DNA of 64,000 nt from a bacterium (GTDB lineage: Bacteria > SAR324 > NAC60-12), in contig CBDBHR010000023.1 of assembly GCA_965205865.1 (NCBI GenBank), positions 124,884 through 188,883 of the forward strand. Direction: 5' to 3'. Positions 40,785 through 64,000 of the stretch are shown piece after piece; position 1 is the first letter of the stretch; each line of letters starts with the position of its first letter. Position numbers and translations under genes: made by a program. Under the pieces are notes generated by a model. It saw only the letters and a program-made list of their open reading frames with translations, was not told the origin of the DNA and did not search any database.

Positions 40785-41022
40785 TGTCATCTCCCTAGTA
40801 CTGCTGTCAGGAAATAGTTGACCCTTTGTTGAGGCAATGATTGTGCCCTATTTGTCATTCCGGGCGAAGACCCGGAATCCAGGGGACTTACCCAAGAACT
40901 CCTGGATCCCGGATCAAGTCCGGGATGACACAGAAAGGGTCAATTACTTCGTAACACCTGTACTAGGCGGGCCCCCTCCGCAGGGAGAGATCTTAAGATC
41001 CCTCACATTCGTTCGGGATGAC
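40785..41022. mobile_element. Nested repeat: REP pair containing a CTAG-bounded MITE (40795-40966) containing a REP pair (40854-40930)
   Basis: TIRs CTAGTACTGCTGTCAGGAAATAGTTGACCCTT / AAGGGTCAATTACTTCGTAACACCTGTACTAG; inner TGTCATTCCGGGCGAAGACCCGGAATCCA. Confidence 0.75.
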
Positions 41023-42029: not shown

Positions 42030-42270
42030 GGTCCCCCCGAGGGGGCCGGTTCGCTCTCACACAGTGGAAGGTGAGAAAACCCCGGAGGGGTGACAGGGCA
42101 TAGCAGCCATTTATGGCTGGGCTAGGCCACCAAACGGTTTTAGTCCCAGAGGGACGACACTTTTTCTCAGGGCGCTTTCAGTGTCGTCCCTCCGGGACTG
42201 GAACCCTCATCAAAATCGGTCCCCAGCCATCAATGGCTGGGCTATAACCTTTCGTCCCTCCGGGACTAAA
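42030..42270. repeat. REP/BIME-like palindrome cluster
   Basis: Repeated GTCCCTCCGGGAC and CAGCCATYWATGGCTG hairpins. Confidence 0.7.
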
Positions 42271-52801: not shown

Positions 52802-53734
52802 TTATTTCGTTAATTTGTTTCGTATAGTTTCGTATTGCTCCTTCAGTTGAGAATCGACAGATAACTTGTTTTTCAATCTCCCAACCCCTTCGCAAATGGT
52901 CACGATATCCCTATTAAAAAAAAGAGCAATTCCTTGAAATGAAGCCACGGAAAACTATTCAGCAAATAGCGCAACAAAAGCTCTGGCAAGCGCGTTTTTT
53001 CTTTGCCTGCCAAGCATTTTGAGAACCTCAGGATTCACTTGCAAGACTGCTCCGACATCTTGTAGAATATCTTCTCATTTTAATGCAATTTGAACTTTTT
53101 CTTCCGCACTCCGGAGAGCCCTTTCCGCAAAGCTGTCATCACCAATAATATCGGGTTTGGTCTCTCCTTTTCGAAAAAGAGAGGGATCTTCTTCCCTCTC
53201 ATCAAGGAAAGCAGCATATTTTCTGATAGCCACCCGTTTGCTTTTTCCAAACCTTTGATAAACCGTATCTCGATAAACCCAATCCTTCTGCTCACTTTCC
53301 AAATAACAGAGATGGCTGCTGTAGGGATAGTTTTTCAGATCTTTCACCAAATCGGCACGTAAAGGATTTTGATGAATGTAGCGGATCAATCCTAAAAGAT
53401 AACGTTCCTCATCGACCAAGATCGCTTTATATCGCCCCTGAAAAAGATGACCCATCCGTTTTTGTTGTTAATTGATTTGGCGCGTGTAACGAAAGGAGAG
53501 ATTCTGCATTATTTTTGATAAAGTCAGCTCGCCAACTTGAAGAGTAAAATGCATATGAATACTCATCAAATAAAAAGCATGGACTCGATAATCAAATCGC
53601 TCGATTCCTTCCTCCAACAAAGAATAGACCACTTGGCGATCACTATCGGAAAAAAAGATACTTTGACCTCCATTGCCACGAAGCATCACATGGTAGATGC
53701 CTCCGGGGAGATGAATACGGGGTTTACGAGACAT
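52802..53734 (-). pseudogene. REP-associated tyrosine transposase with C-terminal HTH, several nonsense codons
   Basis: YHVMLRGN, HMH (HUH), GHLFQGRYK, YIHQNP, YSS. Confidence 0.88.
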
Positions 53735-53814: not shown

Positions 53815-54506
53815 GTCACCGTAAAGAACTGACTTATAGTGGTTTCCAGCCACCTTTCGTCATTCCTCCGGTACAGATCCGGACGTGCGCTGCTAACGCA
53901 TCCGGCTCCTGCTTCGAGTCAGACGCTCAAACGTTGCCGTTTGGCGCACCCTGCTTAAACCGCTCTCTGATTTTACCGGCCTCTGAGTTCCGAACACAGG
54001 AGGGCAAGCAGAATTCCTCTCAGCCAAGTCCCTTTGCTCCACAGGCTCCGTTGATTTCCTTTGCATTATTACTCTCTACAAATGATCTCATTGTTCACCG
54101 CTTCATCGCTACTACGAACTTGTCCGACTTCCTGAAGACGTAGATATCGGGGTTATTTATTAATTTTCCCGATCCGACTACCAATAGAATGTTGACAGTC
54201 GTCTTCAGGATCTCCCAGGTTCCGATCAAGAAACTTCCACACATGCACCGGGTCTTTGACTCCGCCAGGCTCAGCCGAGACTCACGCTAAGGCCTTCGGT
54301 TGATATTGCCTTCCCCACCAGACCACAAGGTCAGCGCCTGAAACTATGATTTCGGAGCTCAATACCGAGCCTATGTTCTCCCCTGTCAACGCTTAGCGCC
54401 TATCCTTGCGAATAACCACTCATGACTCGGGGACTCGGCGGCTCGTTACTGCCTTACCGAGTAAGAGACTTTCACTCTCTATTTCTTGCCAGCTTTCCTG
54501 GCGCAC
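53815..54506 (-). mobile_element. ORF-less group II intron A
   Basis: 5' GTGCG; domain V GAGCCGGATGCGTTAGCAGCGCACGTCCGGATC; 3' AC; removal restores the TIR. Confidence 0.88.
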
Positions 54507-54567
54507 AGCCTGACCCGAACTCAATTATGAATAGGCATTGACCACTTTTTTGAGATATTCCTCAAGG

Positions 54568-54711
54568 GTAACTATTTAGGTGCGAGTTTCCTGGGTTTGC
54601 GGGTATTTTCCTTGGAAAAAGCGCAAAAAATCATTCACTTTTAAGGTATTTTGACGCAATTTAGAGGTTCTGTCGCCCTCTAGCCCAGTGTTTTAGCACC
54701 TAAATAGTTAC
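54568..54711. mobile_element. 144-bp MITE with perfect 16-bp TIRs and an 8-bp target duplication
   Basis: CCTCAAGG|GTAACTATTTAGGTGC...GCACCTAAATAGTTAC|CCTCAAGG. Confidence 0.9.
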
Positions 54712-54816
54712 CCTCAAGGCTAAATATAAGAGTTTCATGACACTCTCATCATGAGGAAATGAACTTCTATTTTTGATGATTTTTCTCAAACTTCGATTGA
54801 CCGATTCATTGGCATG

Positions 54817-55060
54817 AATGGGGACAGGCCGAGTACGCTAAGAATGGGGACAGGCCGATTACGCTAACATAAGACCTGGATTCGGATTAAAAGCCTCATT
54901 GATTTTTCAAGAGCGCCCACAAACCTTCCACCTCGGCCAAGGCTTCTTTCTCTCGTTGCAAGGCGTTCCCCTTCTTTTTCTTTTCGTTCTTTTTGAAAGC
55001 GTTTCAGGAGGAAGGGGCTGTAGAGCGGATCATCGACAAATGTTTCCAACTCAAAGATTT
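54817..55060 (-). pseudogene. Remnant of another RAYT-like element with a tandemly duplicated end
   Basis: GAATGGGGACAGGCCGAKTACGCTAA x2; TRERSLG..RFVGALEK resembles RAYT C-termini. Confidence 0.45.
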
Positions 55061-55186
55061 CCTCCAAATCTTGGAGACGAAAGGCAAATTCCGGCAACGT
55101 TTGCGAGCGAATCACTCCTGCATTGTCAGGAACCATAGGTTGGTAGACGCCTTAAGAGGTCAATCGGTAAAAAGCGGTATGTTTTT

Positions 55187-55690
55187 TTAATCGATCCACA
55201 ATATAATATTCTCGCACTCCCACCGCTTCATATTCTTTTTTTTTGAAAATCGTGTCTCGCTCCATTTCTTTCTTGGTGAAATCCGATAAAAACTCAACGC
55301 AGACATCACAAACACCTCGAAAGGAACGGTCTAAATCTTGAGTGGCAATGGGGTTGGTATGGCGTTAATCACGGCGAGATCCGGTTTGCGAACGCTCACT
55401 TCTTCTCCCATATCCAGCCGAAAGACCATATCCAGCCCCATCAGCCTTCCCACCGGAAAGGTTTTGAGATACTCTTTCAAGAGCTGTAAAAACCATTGGT
55501 ACATTTCGAAGCTCAAATAATCCGACATCGGTTTCTCCTCCAAAAGGCCGTTGTTCCATTCATAGTGAAAGTCCGGATGTTCATAGTAATTTTGCCAATA
55601 ATCCTGCTCACTGATTCGTTTTCCGGCCTCCAAAGAAATAAGTGTTTTCTTCTGGGGTTTCGTTTCCTTTAAGATGTCCGTTGTTTCCAT
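55187..55690 (-). pseudogene. Uma2 family endonuclease, frameshifted
   Basis: YEWNNG.LEEKPM, RKPD, VEFLS, GVREYYIVD across frames. Confidence 0.8.
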
Positions 55691-55964
55691 GAAAATCTCC
55701 TTTGCTCTTGAATGGGTTGTCACTTCCTCACATCAAACTGTAACATATTCCGCTTCCCCTTGTAAACAGACCGACGGAGGATGCTCTGCTGTTTGGTCAT
55801 AATCATAAATCTCAATCAGGGCTTCCATCGTCTTCAACACTTGCCGGGCTTCCGAGTTTTGCCATTGCTCTTTGAGCTTGTTTATTTACCATTTTTCCTT
55901 TTTTCTGCTCCCTTTTCTTTTTGACCTTCTGCACAACTCTATGATGGGCTGTTTTTTTTGCGCA

Positions 55965-56743
55965 CGCGAACGCAAAAGTGAGCCGTTGCTTTTTGCAGAG
56001 CGTAGCGGCGCAGAAAGTAATCGGTCTCCACTGATTTGTGTGTGCCCGGCATGGGCATGAACTTATGGGGTGTGAGTCCCCTGTACATTATCCGAAAAGT
56101 ATACTAGTCAGCTTATGATTACAACTTTAAAAAGTACTAGCCGAGGGCAAGTGCGGGGAGGTGACGAGCCGTGCGGAGGAAGCCTAAGCGCAAACCTACG
56201 AGTCGACGGACAGAAACAGCATATAAGGCTGAACTTCGGGGCGAGCAAGCACAACATTGCGATGTCCACTCGGATTAAGGAGGATGGTAAATGCTGCGAT
56301 TGTGTAGGGAAAGTTCATGCTCTTACCCGGGGAGATCTGATCGTGATGCGGTCGGAGATAGTGAGATGAAGACTAGAAGAGCCAGGAGCGGTTAATTCCT
56401 CTCTTGCGCATCACTCTCCTTCTTCTCGTTTGTCTCAGGTAGCGCGGTGTCGAGTAATCGGCAACGAAGGCGGTCAGAAGTCAGCCGAGGGCATAGTAGC
56501 TCCTGGAGAGTGAAGGCCCGAACCCAAGAGAACGCTCTATCCCATATGCTCTGTACATTGATGAAGCCGACCGGTGGAGATGATTAAAATAGGTGCGTTG
56601 TGGGACGAATAAACGTACAGGTTTGTGGTTGCAAATCTGGTCCGGCTACGGCCCGACACTCTTTGGGAATCGCCCCGTACGGACCCGTATGCGGGGTGGT
56701 GTGGGAGGGAGGGGAGAAAAACCCCTTCCTATCCCGATTCGAT
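55965..56743 (-). other. attC site (about 80 bp when rejoined) interrupted by group II intron B
   Basis: R'' ATCGA|AC, CAGTGGAGACCG...CGGCTCACT, R' GTTCGCG. Confidence 0.8.
56040..56738 (+). mobile_element. ORF-less class C (attC-type) group II intron B
   Basis: 5' GTGTGCCCGGCATGGG; short domain V CGCCCCGTACGGACCCGTATGCGGGGTGG; 3' CCCGAT; TTGT|T insertion site. Confidence 0.9.
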
Positions 56744-60869: not shown

Positions 60870-62096
60870 TCAGTTTGAGTTTTTTGGCAAATACCCATAT
60901 TTACTAAGCGCCTTCAACCATCTGGGAGCATTTTTTTTGACAACGAGTGCCTCATAATCAATTTGAGGATCTCGATAAGGTTCTTGCTTCTTGAGAACAA
61001 TGTAAATTATTTGAAGCATTTTATGAGCAATGGCAACGATACTACGCTTGTGTCCCCGGCGAATCACAAGGCCTTGATATCGTCCTTTAAATTGCGATTT
61101 GGTTTTGATGGCAGCATTAGCACATTCACATAATAATGAACGAACATATGCATTGCCTTTACGAGTTTTACCGGTTTTGCGTTTTCCTGCACTTTCATTG
61201 TTTCCAGGCGAGAGTGCCGCCCATGAACAAAGATGGTGTTTATTGGGAAAAGCACCCATATCGGTGCTAAGCTCGGCCAGTAACATCGTGGCAGAGATGT
61301 GGTCAATTCCAGGAATGGTTTGCAATAAGTGATATTGCTCCTGATACGGGACCATCGCCGCAACGAGCTGCTCATCGATTTGCTCTATCCTGGATTCGAG
61401 CCATACCATATGGGCCTGAATCTGTTTGAGCAAAAAACGTTGGCGCTCACTCAAAGAAGTGGACAATGATTTTTCAATCAGAGCCAACTTCGGAAGCAAC
61501 CTACCATGTAAAAGGGAGGCAAGTTTATCCGGCTGAATCCCGCCACTCTCAATGAGAGTAGCGATCATTCTTCGTGCCGAAACGCCATCGATGTCACTGA
61601 GCACGAGCCCTAATTTGATACCACAACTTTCAAGGATTTTGTGCAAGCGATTTTTTTCGCTACTCAAAACGCCTGAAAGTTTTTTACGGTAACGTGTCAA
61701 CAAACGAAGTTGACGAAAATCTTTTGGAGGAACAAAACTGGCTTTGAGTAATCCACAACGGGCAAGTTCTGCTAACCATTCTGAATCCTGTACGTCGCTC
61801 TTTCGACCAGGAACTTTTTTGATATGGTAGGCATTGACCACCCAAGGAATAATTCCCACATTTTCGAGAGACTCATAAACTTGTTTCCAGTAAATGCCTG
61901 TGGATTCCATGACCACTAACTCTGGGTTTAACTGCTTTAACCACTGAGCGAGTTCTTCCAAATCTTGTGAAAAGGTCTCGAATTCTTTGACCTTTTTGCT
62001 TATTTGTCCATCGCGATTCTCATGAAGCACTGTGGCCACAATCACAGCGCGATGAATATCTAGACCAGCACTACTTTGAGCTAAGGGTTGAATCAT
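60870..62096 (-). CDS. IS110 family DEDD recombinase
   Basis: GLDIH, VMESTG, KSDVQD, TIPGI, ESAGK. Confidence 0.95.
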   Translation of the reverse strand: MIQPLAQSSAGLDIHRAVIVATVLHENRDGQISKKVKEFETFSQDLEELAQWLKQLNPELVVMESTGIYWKQVYESLENVGIIPWVVNAYHIKKVPGRKSDVQDSEWLAELARCGLLKASFVPPKDFRQLRLLTRYRKKLSGVLSSEKNRLHKILESCGIKLGLVLSDIDGVSARRMIATLIESGGIQPDKLASLLHGRLLPKLALIEKSLSTSLSERQRFLLKQIQAHMVWLESRIEQIDEQLVAAMVPYQEQYHLLQTIPGIDHISATMLLAELSTDMGAFPNKHHLCSWAALSPGNNESAGKRKTGKTRKGNAYVRSLLCECANAAIKTKSQFKGRYQGLVIRRGHKRSIVAIAHKMLQIIYIVLKKQEPYRDPQIDYEALVVKKNAPRWLKALSKYGYLPKNSN

Positions 62097-62330: not shown

Positions 62331-62444
62331 ATTGAGTTCTAACATATTTTCATCTTCCGGGGTGAAAGCATAAGTTTTCATGAAGGTTACGTGTATATTT
62401 TTTGCATTCAGCGGTTTCCATGAATACGTTTTCCCACAAGTGTG

Positions 62445-63359
62445 ATAGGGGTCAGGAAGGCATTAGCCTCCCTGCCCTCCGAACCGTGCGTGCGGTTCTC
62501 CCGCACACGGCTCTCCAGTCGTTGGTTTCCTCATCGGGATTGGCTCGCTACCCATCGGACTTCTTTTCCTGCCTGTCAATTTAGGTTCGTGTTTGTTTTC
62601 CCTGTTAGCCATCTGGTTTCCCGATGGTGTCACAATATCCTCACCTTGTTGACAGACACAACCATGGTGAAAAGTCCGAGTTGTGCGAAGAAGAGATCTC
62701 CTTTGACTCCGTTACCCAGAGCCGCCAACATACGTTCGATCCATATCGTTGTTTCCACCCATCTCCAATGAGGAGAGGCTTCTGTTTCCAGGTTAGTCAT
62801 CTCCGACACTTTGGAAACTCCTTTTCTTGAGGATCAACTTGATGAACTGCTCGTATCCAACTTCCTACCCCGCTTCCCTCTTCGGGATTTTGCTTCTCCC
62901 GCCTTTCATGAAGCCTGCCTGTCAATTTAGGTTCGTGTTTGTTTTCCCTGTTAGCCATCTGGTTTCCCGATGGTGTCACAATATCCTCACCTTGTTGAAA
63001 GACACAACTCCATTACGGTACTATCAGGGTTCTGACTCCTCTACCTCTCACCAAAGGCAGAGGTCTCCCTGCTTCTCTCGCTTAACCTTCCTGATGTTCC
63101 GTCCCCAACCACGTTATGCGCCTGACCCTCGTTTTATCCACCACCGCAACGGGATCAGTGAGTTTCAGACTTCGCCACGAATGAGCAAGCTCGTCGCTAA
63201 CATGCCGCCGAATCGGGTTCGTTCTCCTACGGACCACCATTTCGCCTCCGGTTGCTCCCCACCCCGCCTCATGGCGACGCAGTTACCTTCGGCTACATGG
63301 CTGTGGTTTACCATGGCACGGACTTCCACCGCGCTGATTAAGCGCCTTCCCAGGCGCAC
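62445..63359 (-). mobile_element. Group II intron C with internally deleted RT
   Basis: 5' GTGCG; domain V GAGCCGTGTGCGGGAGAACCGCACGCACGGTTC; 3' CCTAT; RT remnants WVETTIWIERMLAAL and FFAQLGLFTM. Confidence 0.9.
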
Positions 63360-63734
63360 TCATTCCTGGCGAAGACCAGGAATCCAGGAGTCGCCATCAT
63401 GAAAACCTACTACGTTTATATCTTAGCAAGTAAAAGAAATGGCACTTTATATATTGGAGTGACCAATGATCTTCTTAGAAGAGTTTATAAACATAAAAAC
63501 AATCTCATAGAAGGATTTACCAGTAAATACCAAGTACGTCAATTGGTATACTATGAGACCACTTCAGAGGTAACAACTGCTCTCCGGAGAGAAAAACAAC
63601 TTAGGAAATGGAAACGAGCTTGGAAAACCGAACTCATTGAGAAAAATAATCCTCAATGGATAGATTTATATGAAACGTTTTAGTCACCCTGGATCGCTAG
63701 CATAGTGGATTCCTGATCTTCGCCAGGAGTGACA
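63360..63734. repeat. Inverted REP pair flanking the GIY-YIG gene
   Basis: (TG)TCATTCCTGGCGAAGACCAGGAATCCA and TGGATTCCTGATCTTCGCCAGGAGTGACA. Confidence 0.85.
63399..63683 (+). CDS. GIY-YIG nuclease family protein
   Basis: YYVYIL..LYIGVT..RR..H, REKQLRKWKR. Confidence 0.92.
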   Translation: MKTYYVYILASKRNGTLYIGVTNDLLRRVYKHKNNLIEGFTSKYQVRQLVYYETTSEVTTALRREKQLRKWKRAWKTELIEKNNPQWIDLYETF

Positions 63735-64000
63735 ACTCGATGAGACGCATAACTGCAAAAATCGTTCGCGGTAACATCAGTTAATCAATCATCTTCGTTT
63801 TCATCACGTTATAAAGAATTGCATGGAAAAGGGGTCAAGTTTTTTTAGCTTTAAAGAAAAACCTTACCGAATGAGGAAACGGATTTCCAAGAAGAAGGAT
63901 TTGCGGACTCGCTGTAGAGGGTATCACTTTCCGCTTAAAAACGACGGTCTCTTTGTCGGGAGCCGTTATCGCTTCAGAGAACTGATCTTTCAAAAACCTG

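Follow-up and report, generated by a model that had tools for sequence, protein, structure and literature searches.

An ORF-less group II intron at the foot of a REP hairpin in a SAR324 bacterium, and a wider intron lineage found beside hairpins

Group II introns are described as having three target specificities, with homing in all lineages except class C (Zimmerly and Semper 2015, PMC4424553), and the recognition of hairpins is tied to class C (IIC) introns, all other lineages being assigned sites defined by sequence, by Waldern et al. (2020, PMC7306698) and Gomes et al. (2025, PMC12584367); statements credited to the literature in this text refer to excerpts of the cited papers. In IIC introns, the pairing between exon-binding site 1 (EBS1) and intron-binding site 1 (IBS1) spans 3–4 bp (PMC7923331), part of EBS1 and all of EBS2 are absent (Nagy et al. 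2013, PMC3753933), and target stems are ~12 bp long, with the EBS1 of the E.r. IIC intron at nt 184–188 (PMC10190682). Class E and F introns have two idiosyncrasies, an alpha' at the tip of the DId3 stem-loop and a 5-nt domain V loop, and they measure 450–700 nt without their open reading frame (ORF) (PMC3753933). Bacterial introns without an ORF are rare and nearly always occur with a related intron-encoded protein (PMC4424553). A group II intron of Pseudomonas putida has 2 of its 9 copies at repetitive extragenic palindromes (REPs) (Tobes and Pareja 2006, PMC1525189); that table entry and a speculation in PMC7923331 were all that the excerpts searched contained on hairpin- or REP-homing outside IIC, the intron database and supplements being outside the scope of the search, and the excerpt of Toro and Martinez-Abarca (2013) contained no target or motif data. 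Here, we analyze an ORF-less group II intron, called intron C, in a 64,000-nt stretch of a SAR324 bacterial genome (the window; C23:124884-188883 of a 4.74-Mb, 30-contig assembly, G000, that is 92% complete), together with its relatives in other bacteria. Contigs, genomes and loci carry the prefixes C, G and L.

Very probably, intron C as a whole is best explained as a structurally intact, non-autonomous group II intron that has lost its reverse transcriptase (RT) by deletion and that comes from an endonuclease-less lineage with class E/F ribozyme features (Table 1). On the minus strand its junctions read ...CCTGGATTCCTGGTCTTCGCCAGGAATGA / GTGCGCCTGGG ... CCTGACCCCTAT / CACACTTGTGGG, so that the last letters of the 5' exon are ...CCAGGAATGA at 63360, the intron begins GTGCGCC at 63359 and ends ...CCCCTAT at 62445, and the 3' exon opens CACACTTG at 62444. 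These termini agree with the group II pattern GUGYG/AY, as do those of the other copies in the genome. The domain V/VI family of Rfam (RF00029) matches at 62445-62515 on the minus strand with 54.3 bits (gathering score 40), and a match to D1-D4-3 at intron positions 82-239 reaches only 25 bits, below its gathering score of 32. An alignment of relatives gives domain I a consensus fold of 79 pairs, 53 of them with compensatory changes. The same fold supports the alpha' stem, and alpha and alpha' covary among the relatives (GCCA/UGGC, GUCAU/AUGAC, GUUAU/AUAAC, UACCA/UGGUA). Domain V reads GAGCCGUGUGCGG-GA(G/A)AA-CCGCACGCACGGUUC, and its 5-nt loop is found in all 44 distinct 3' ends of the lineage.

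The intron sits at the foot of a REP. An earlier note on this DNA had claimed that removal of the intron restores a REP like the one at 40854, that a UCAUUC loop in domain I is complementary to the 5' exon end GAAUGA, and that the RT is reduced to fused N- and C-terminal remnants, and each of these claims is borne out by our data. The joined flanks read TGTG+TCATTCCTGGCGAAGACCAGGAATCCAGG on the plus strand, and the uninterrupted sequence ...CACAAGTGTG^TCATTCCTGG... (begins TCATTCC) is present at 12 other loci of the genome that carry the same GIY-YIG/REP unit (described below). This paralogous evidence for the empty site is the strongest available; the hairpin belongs to that multicopy unit. 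Orthologous empty sites were sought in a congener with a closed chromosome (G001) and set aside: there was no clean orthologue, since the flanks of other intron C copies, those at C30 and C23:121 kb, are repeats present ~40 times each in G001. At 40854, the REP (TTTGTCATTCCGGGCGAAGACCCGGAATCCAGGGG) is a version of this element whose upper stem carries compensated changes (CGGG/CCCG instead of CTGG/CCAG). The element also has the multiple copies, short palindrome, conserved foot and compensated stem variants that define a REP: perfect stems of at least 7 bp that start AT(T/C)C(C/T/G) give 398 matches on both strands of the genome, and 175 of these continue with GA, most commonly as GACAAC, GACACA or GACAAG. 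As for the loop, the UCAUUC at 63184-63179 lies in a hairpin supported by covariation, and its rule of complementarity was assessed over 39 EBS1/IBS1 combinations.

The other copies in the genome are likewise found at REPs. Blastn located three further complete ORF-less copies (C23:120929-121742, C29:587335-588492 and C30:745113-745928), a further copy cut short at nt 240 (C28:322040), and internal fragments. All five intron 5' junctions adjoin a REP-type hairpin that ends in GAATGA or GGATGA, and the 3' exon begins with CA at all four complete copies. UCAUUC is kept in every copy, with the two GGAUGA sites paired via G.U, and the four full copies have an intact EBS1, domain V and branch site. 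The copies are 97.4–98.7% identical to one another (a difference of 1.3–2.6%) and 93–94% identical to the copies of the congener. The upper stems of the five occupied REPs are five different sequences, with pairing kept by changes on both strands. Under a looser definition of the hairpin, 600 of the 8088 G(A/G)ATGA sites in the genome have a REP-type hairpin, five of which are then followed by the intron; by our own arithmetic, five hairpin junctions out of five would have a chance of ~2e-6 if insertion ignored the hairpin.

Relatives were collected in two ways. Nine of 41 genomes searched at the DNA level (40 relatives and the window's own) had matches. G001 has two copies with the same deletion, inside a local duplication; the copy of G017 is 85% identical and lies at the start of a contig, with the junction GGAATGA/GTGCG and no domain V; and the copy of G007, which follows ...GGCATGA, is truncated. 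When species genomes were scanned with the relic peptide of intron C, there were 425 pattern matches; tblastn confirmed 93 of them, and 79 were kept as distinct loci, in Betaproteobacteria, Desulfobacterota, Chlorobi, Gammaproteobacteria and other hosts. Once their ends had been mapped with nhmmer, most of these relatives were full-length introns of ~1.85-2.0 kb, and several were ORF-less minis of 777-875 nt. The protein of the full-length relatives has RVT_1 and GIIM domains and no endonuclease (TIGR04416, 395.6 bits). One Desulfatiglandales chromosome (OY759599.1) has at least 13 copies of the lineage, all after GTTCCCACGC-loop-GCGTGGGAAC-type hairpins, and at L039:3460-7265 two of its 1903-nt full-length copies lie head to tail, the second right after the ...CCCCTAT of the first.

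Across the lineage, exon and intron covary at both predicted contacts. The 39 distinct EBS1/IBS1 combinations pair at all six positions in 19 cases, at five in 12 and at four in eight, so that 31 of 39 pair at five or more; covarying examples are CGUUCC/GGAACG, AACUGA/UCAGUU, GAACGC/GCGUUC, UAGGUC/GACCUA and UGGAUU/AAUCCA. The mean pairing is 5.28 of 6, versus 2.74 +/- 0.22 when exons are shuffled among introns (2000 shuffles, maximum 3.51; the second intron of the head-to-tail pair at L039 and one row without sequence were excluded). In the EBS3 column, G occurs with C at +1 in 45 rows, and U occurs with A in 12 rows of the Desulfatiglandales record and in two Burkholderiaceae plasmid introns; two exons that start with T retain G. 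Since the change from G to U accompanies the change from C to A in two separate groups, these are two independent EBS3/IBS3 changes.

The hairpin is as regular a feature of the sites as the pairing. At 53 of 63 distinct sites, the 3' strand of a Watson-Crick stem (4 bp or longer) ends 5–7 nt before the insertion site; random positions drawn from the same loci show this in 52 of 640 cases. At the other 10 sites the stem has one mismatch or a G.T pair. The spacer between stem and site peaks at 6 nt (46 of 63 sites) and is 8 nt or longer at no more than five. If the stem must have 5 bp or more and end no further than 9 nt away, the counts are 45 of 64 sites versus 44 of 659 controls. Folded as DNA, the 30 nt upstream have a mean energy of -7.1 kcal/mol, versus -2.4 kcal/mol in the controls. 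Two plasmid introns of cultured strains follow the same hairpin rule. By this measure, the whole wider lineage is hairpin-adjacent, and not the REP-homing branch alone. No pair covaried in a search for EBS2/IBS2 that set every domain I 5-mer against exon offsets from -1 to -25; the best candidate was paired in a fraction of 0.65, in near-invariant segments, with gapped columns unscored.

One alternative is that the hairpin is incidental: EBS1 would have drifted to abundant, palindromic intergenic repeats, and the particle would read sequence only. EBS1 and EBS3 do specify seven bases, REPs and similar repeats are safe and abundant sites, and at REP-type sites four pairs of the stem must melt for IBS1 to pair. 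We consider this unlikely, since the register of the stem is fixed, as the spacer counts show, and is constant across ~20 IBS1 motifs and unrelated hairpins, including non-REP sites and plasmids, and since changes on both strands preserve the pairing of the upper stems, variable as these are among the five occupied REPs.

The earlier note had also proposed a REP-homing intron lineage with many targets per genome. The five of five junctions at REPs and the ~175 perfect-stem REPs support this proposal, and the hairpin-adjacent relatives widen it. Its counter-evidence would have been relatives with the same loop outside REPs, and we saw none: all six UCAUUC carriers outside the genus (L026, L030, L031, L061, L063 and L090) adjoin a hairpin that ends in GAUGA. 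L030, L031 and L090, and also L013 and L084, have unoccupied REPs of this design in their flanks, so one REP architecture seems common to distant phyla; the flanks of L026, L061 and L063 have no REP of the design beyond the occupied one. Written out, the design is CTGG-ATTCC-GC stem-GGAAT-GAC; hosts in which it stands empty next to the intron include Sulfuricella, Gallionellaceae, Comamonas and other metagenome-assembled genomes. REPs are landing sites of insertion sequences as well (ISPpu9, ISPpu10, ISPa11 and IS1397; PMC1525189), although these insertion sequences are DNA transposons, whereas here five of five intron copies are at REPs with a base-pairing rule.

We propose that the target, in DNA and RNA, is composite, a short G+C-rich hairpin with its 3' strand ending at -7, followed by the six-base IBS1 and the one-base IBS3. 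IBS1 (here GAAUGA) would be read by the EBS1 loop UCAUUC, and the C of IBS3 by G251. In the REP branch, EBS1 would be adapted to the A/T-rich foot conserved in one REP family, YGG-ATYCC-variable GC stem/loop-GGRAT-GA/CA, and every REP would consequently offer a site, whatever its upper stem. The 8-bp REP stem probably overlaps IBS1 by four A/T-rich pairs, and after EBS1 has paired, the remaining G+C stem would end at -7, as it does in the rest of the lineage. Insertion would proceed by reverse splicing into single-stranded DNA with an RT supplied in trans, and the hairpin would be actively recognised, replacing the EBS2/IBS2 contact. Most likely, a particle dependent on a borrowed RT reverse-splices at this composite target (hairpin to -7, 6 nt, 1 nt).

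The behaviour is IIC-like, in a lineage with non-IIC RNA. Compared with IIC introns (B.h.I1, GsI-IIC and E.r., which insert after terminator hairpins; IIC-attC), the lineage shares a stem-loop followed by IBS1 and a single IBS3, a protein without endonuclease, and many loosely specified intergenic sites (PMC10190682, PMC4424553); EBS2, which IIC introns lack, gave no signal here in the search described above. It differs in a 6-bp EBS1 pairing that abuts a stem of mostly 4–8 bp, in the lack of a T-run, and in a 5-nt domain V loop, a terminal-loop alpha' and a larger ribozyme. Compared with class E/F introns (Cl.be.I2, Pe.th.I2 and Ge.ur.I1; PMC3753933), it shares the 5-nt domain V loop, the alpha' at the DId3 tip, a size of 450-700 nt without ORF and the lack of endonuclease. 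The difference is that these class E/F introns are described as having clear EBS2/IBS2 pairings, with hairpin targeting unmentioned in the excerpt of PMC3753933, whereas here a hairpin occupies the IBS2 position and no EBS2 covariation was found. N. hamburgensis and other named class F introns did not appear among the 40 listed of 4997 matching plasmid records.

It is therefore worth weighing the reading that intron C is an ordinary IIC intron, with the REP standing in for a terminator hairpin. A hairpin 5' of the site, no EBS2 signal in the search described above, a protein without an endonuclease domain and an EBS1 at nt 176-181, close to the 184-188 of E.r. (PMC10190682), would all suit an IIC intron, as would an RT with IIC enzymes as its best PDB matches. 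Several features make this reading improbable. EBS1/IBS1 covaries over its full six nt, versus the 3–4 bp of IIC (PMC7923331), and so lacks the shortening seen there; the 5-nt domain V loop and the alpha' in a terminal stem-loop are E/F idiosyncrasies (PMC3753933), the usual domain V loop of IIC having 4 nt; and at L030 the ribozyme outside the ORF has ~600 nt (1923 nt minus 1317 nt), versus 412 nt in the minimal IIC ribozyme of ~410 nt. The stems, mostly of 4–8 bp and without a T-run, contrast with the ~12 bp at IIC targets (PMC10190682), and the PDB match does not discriminate. On its sequence features, we provisionally file the ribozyme as E/F-type, not IIC, and leave the class of the ORF (the protein) open.

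We now turn to the loss of the RT. The relic ORF of intron C aligns to the 438-aa protein of L030 at residues 13–48 (22 of 36 identical) and 418–427 (8 of 10); residues ~13–44 fused to 418–427 are what remains, and ~370 residues of the RT/maturase are missing. Domain IV of intron C lacks an intron-encoded RT/maturase, and intron C is hence an ORF-less derivative. The copies in the genome have one common deletion and unrelated flanks, and because they share this deletion yet occupy unrelated sites, they moved after the RT had been lost; the RT that moved them would be either heterologous or since lost. ORF-less derivatives in seven other records join N-terminal residues up to 44-55 to residues 406-416 onward, with the N-terminal retention partly an artefact of finding these loci with the relic peptide, and each derivative has an EBS1 and a domain I like those of the full-length introns in its branch. 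The RT thus appears to have been deleted independently in other bacteria at nearly the same bounds. At L030 the ORF ends only 88 nt ahead of the 3' end of the intron, and the retained N- and C-terminal codons may persist as domain IV RNA (protein-binding site, closing stem). Limnohabitans sp. WS1 has both full-length and mini forms in one genome. Mohr and colleagues reportedly described, in 2010, ORF-less TeI3-type introns of Thermosynechococcus elongatus that had lost their RT and multiplied in the genome beside related introns encoding a protein. Intron C is like them in that RT-deleted derivatives have multiplied within a genome; here, the cognate RT was not found, whereas Limnohabitans sp. 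WS1 holds both forms.

The family in this genus may alternatively be an immobile fossil that spread with its cognate RT, which has since been lost, and this has close to an even chance of being right. Such a history would suit the divergence among the copies and the lack of a cognate RT in G000 and the closed G001. It would also suit the damage: a 96-nt internal duplication in intron C, a doubled 3' part in the C29 copy (C29:587335-588492, in which positions 583-697 plus 794-915 are present twice, giving two domain V/VI ends), one truncated copy, and the G017 copy without domain V. The 96-nt duplicate was inserted right after the relic ORF, at ATGG/TTGTG microhomology, and is skipped by contigs of all four runs compared with it; judged from their sequences, it and the doubled part of the C29 copy look like products of template switching or slippage. 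G017 additionally has a longer, broken RT remnant of residues 6–141, with a TGA stop. What argues against a fossil is that EBS1, domain V and the branch site remain intact in all four full copies, that at least 10 other group II RT genes might act in trans, and that 8% of the genome is unassembled.

The reading of intron C as a mobile-type, hairpin-guided E/F intron has several points weighing against it. In the PDB, the RT of a full-length relative matches IIC enzymes best (GsI-IIC 215 bits, E.r. 198 bits, then TeI4h 165 and LtrA 138), a comparison that cannot decide the class since the RTs in the PDB are IIC, CL and ML only, with no class D, E or F. Only the register of the stem points to active hairpin recognition, and the sites are not phylogenetically independent, with many loci from few genomes and found via the relic peptide. 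The cognate RT was not found in the 92% complete genome, where the relic peptide matched only copies of intron C and the at least 10 group II RT genes are only 30–39% identical to the RT of a full-length relative. Nor was it found in the closed G001 chromosome (best match 42%), in G007 or in G008; for scale, among the 40 listed plasmid records the members of the lineage reach 63% identity and the next best ~42%. As no RT of the lineage was found, present-day mobility is unproven and the copies may be fossils. Metatranscriptome contigs from three runs of two studies cover the intron and extend into several different REP exons, and such contigs from RNA libraries do not prove transcription or splicing. 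A 915-nt skip was considered as splicing and rejected: its sole instance is in run X1 (kind unspecified) and is explained by the paralogous empty sites.

As a tentative possibility, which we place short of an even chance, a second group II lineage, outside class C, acquired or retained structure-guided DNA targeting, and for its E/F-type ribozyme a short hairpin next to a full 6-bp IBS1 replaces EBS2/IBS2. One branch of this lineage would have tracked a REP family across phyla, and the RT would have been shed repeatedly at nearly the same bounds, giving minis that resemble short interspersed nuclear elements; here the minis would have multiplied without a cognate RT, maybe with a heterologous one. 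The combination of an E/F-type RNA with an EBS1 of full length and a strict hairpin register would mean that the reading of DNA shape is not confined to the minimal IIC ribozyme. The rule would be simple and retargetable (hairpin, 6 nt and 1 nt), with full-length members in cultured strains, among them Paraburkholderia aromaticivorans BN5 (pBN3) and Cupriavidus taiwanensis STM 8555, and the natural series of non-autonomous derivatives would be useful for studies of trans-mobilisation.

The REP that hosts intron C belongs to a multicopy unit, in which two inverted REPs directly flank a 94-aa GIY-YIG gene at 63399-63683 (Pfam PF01541, 59.5 bits). Intron C occupies the left REP, antisense to the gene. 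Nine full-length copies of the unit, including the window's own, and additional fragments are found in the genome. The AGGAG ahead of the gene's ATG comes from the flank of the left REP. By analogy, the unit looks like a unit of a REP and a REP-associated tyrosine transposase (RAYT) in which a GIY-YIG nuclease replaces the transposase. None of the 15 Y1_Tnp matches in the genome has a REP of this type within 900 bp, and a literature search that paired GIY-YIG with the terms REP, REPIN or RAYT found no paper containing both. In several copies (window 62340-62385, C27, C3, C28 and C24), the ends of the unit adjoin another repeat (...GTGAAAATAATTTACATGAAG), which suggests that the unit was nested by insertion into a second multicopy element.

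Table 1. Positions of intron C, its ribozyme parts, its target and its host element in the window
Feature	Position	Strand	Details
ORF-less group II intron (intron C)	62445..63359	minus	915 nt, ends GUGCG...CUAU
EBS1 UCAUUC	63179..63184	minus	intron positions 176-181, 11-nt loop of domain I hairpin
Candidate EBS3, G251	63109	minus	pairs with first 3' exon base, C at 62444
alpha, ACCA	63304..63307	minus	intron positions 53-56; covaries with alpha'
alpha', UGGU	63140..63143	minus	intron positions 217-220; terminal loop of the stem-loop 3' of the EBS1 hairpin
Domain V	62481..62513	minus	33 nt, 5-nt loop GAGAA
Predicted branch-point A	62452	minus	bulged, domain VI; 8th base from 3' end; from sequence and alignment
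96-nt internal duplicate	62567..62662	minus	copies intron positions 352-446 (window 63008-62914); blastn; only in the intron C copy
Relic ORF, 59 aa	62630..62809	minus	RT N-terminus fused in frame to C-terminus
5' exon REP hairpin	63360..63388	minus	5' stem ATTCCTGG 63383-63376, loop 63375-63370, 3' stem CCAGGAAT 63369-63362, foot GA 63361-63360
IBS1 GAAUGA	63365-63360	minus	last six 5' exon bases
Host element	62386..63775	plus	multicopy unit, ~475 bp without the intron; imperfect ~21-bp terminal inverted repeats GTTACGTG...TTTTTGCA

The region around intron C is a pile-up of mobile elements. An IS110-family transposase (NF033542, 271 bits) lies at 60870-62096 on the minus strand, ~350 nt beyond the 3' exon of intron C, and a Y1_Tnp match with a TAA stop lies at 53366-53698, also on the minus strand (C23:178249-178581). 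Rfam families of group II domains I-IV match at 54250-54472 (minus) and at 56155-56321 and 56443-56518 (plus), with 166.7 bits for RF02005, 110.9 for RF02001 and 53.7 for RF01998. Since there is no domain V match near 54250-56518 and no GIIM match on the contig, these would be further intron pieces or ORF-less introns of other lineages. The window also has a match to the Acido-Lenti-1 RNA at 42222-42267 on the plus strand (52.1 bits, gathering score 37).

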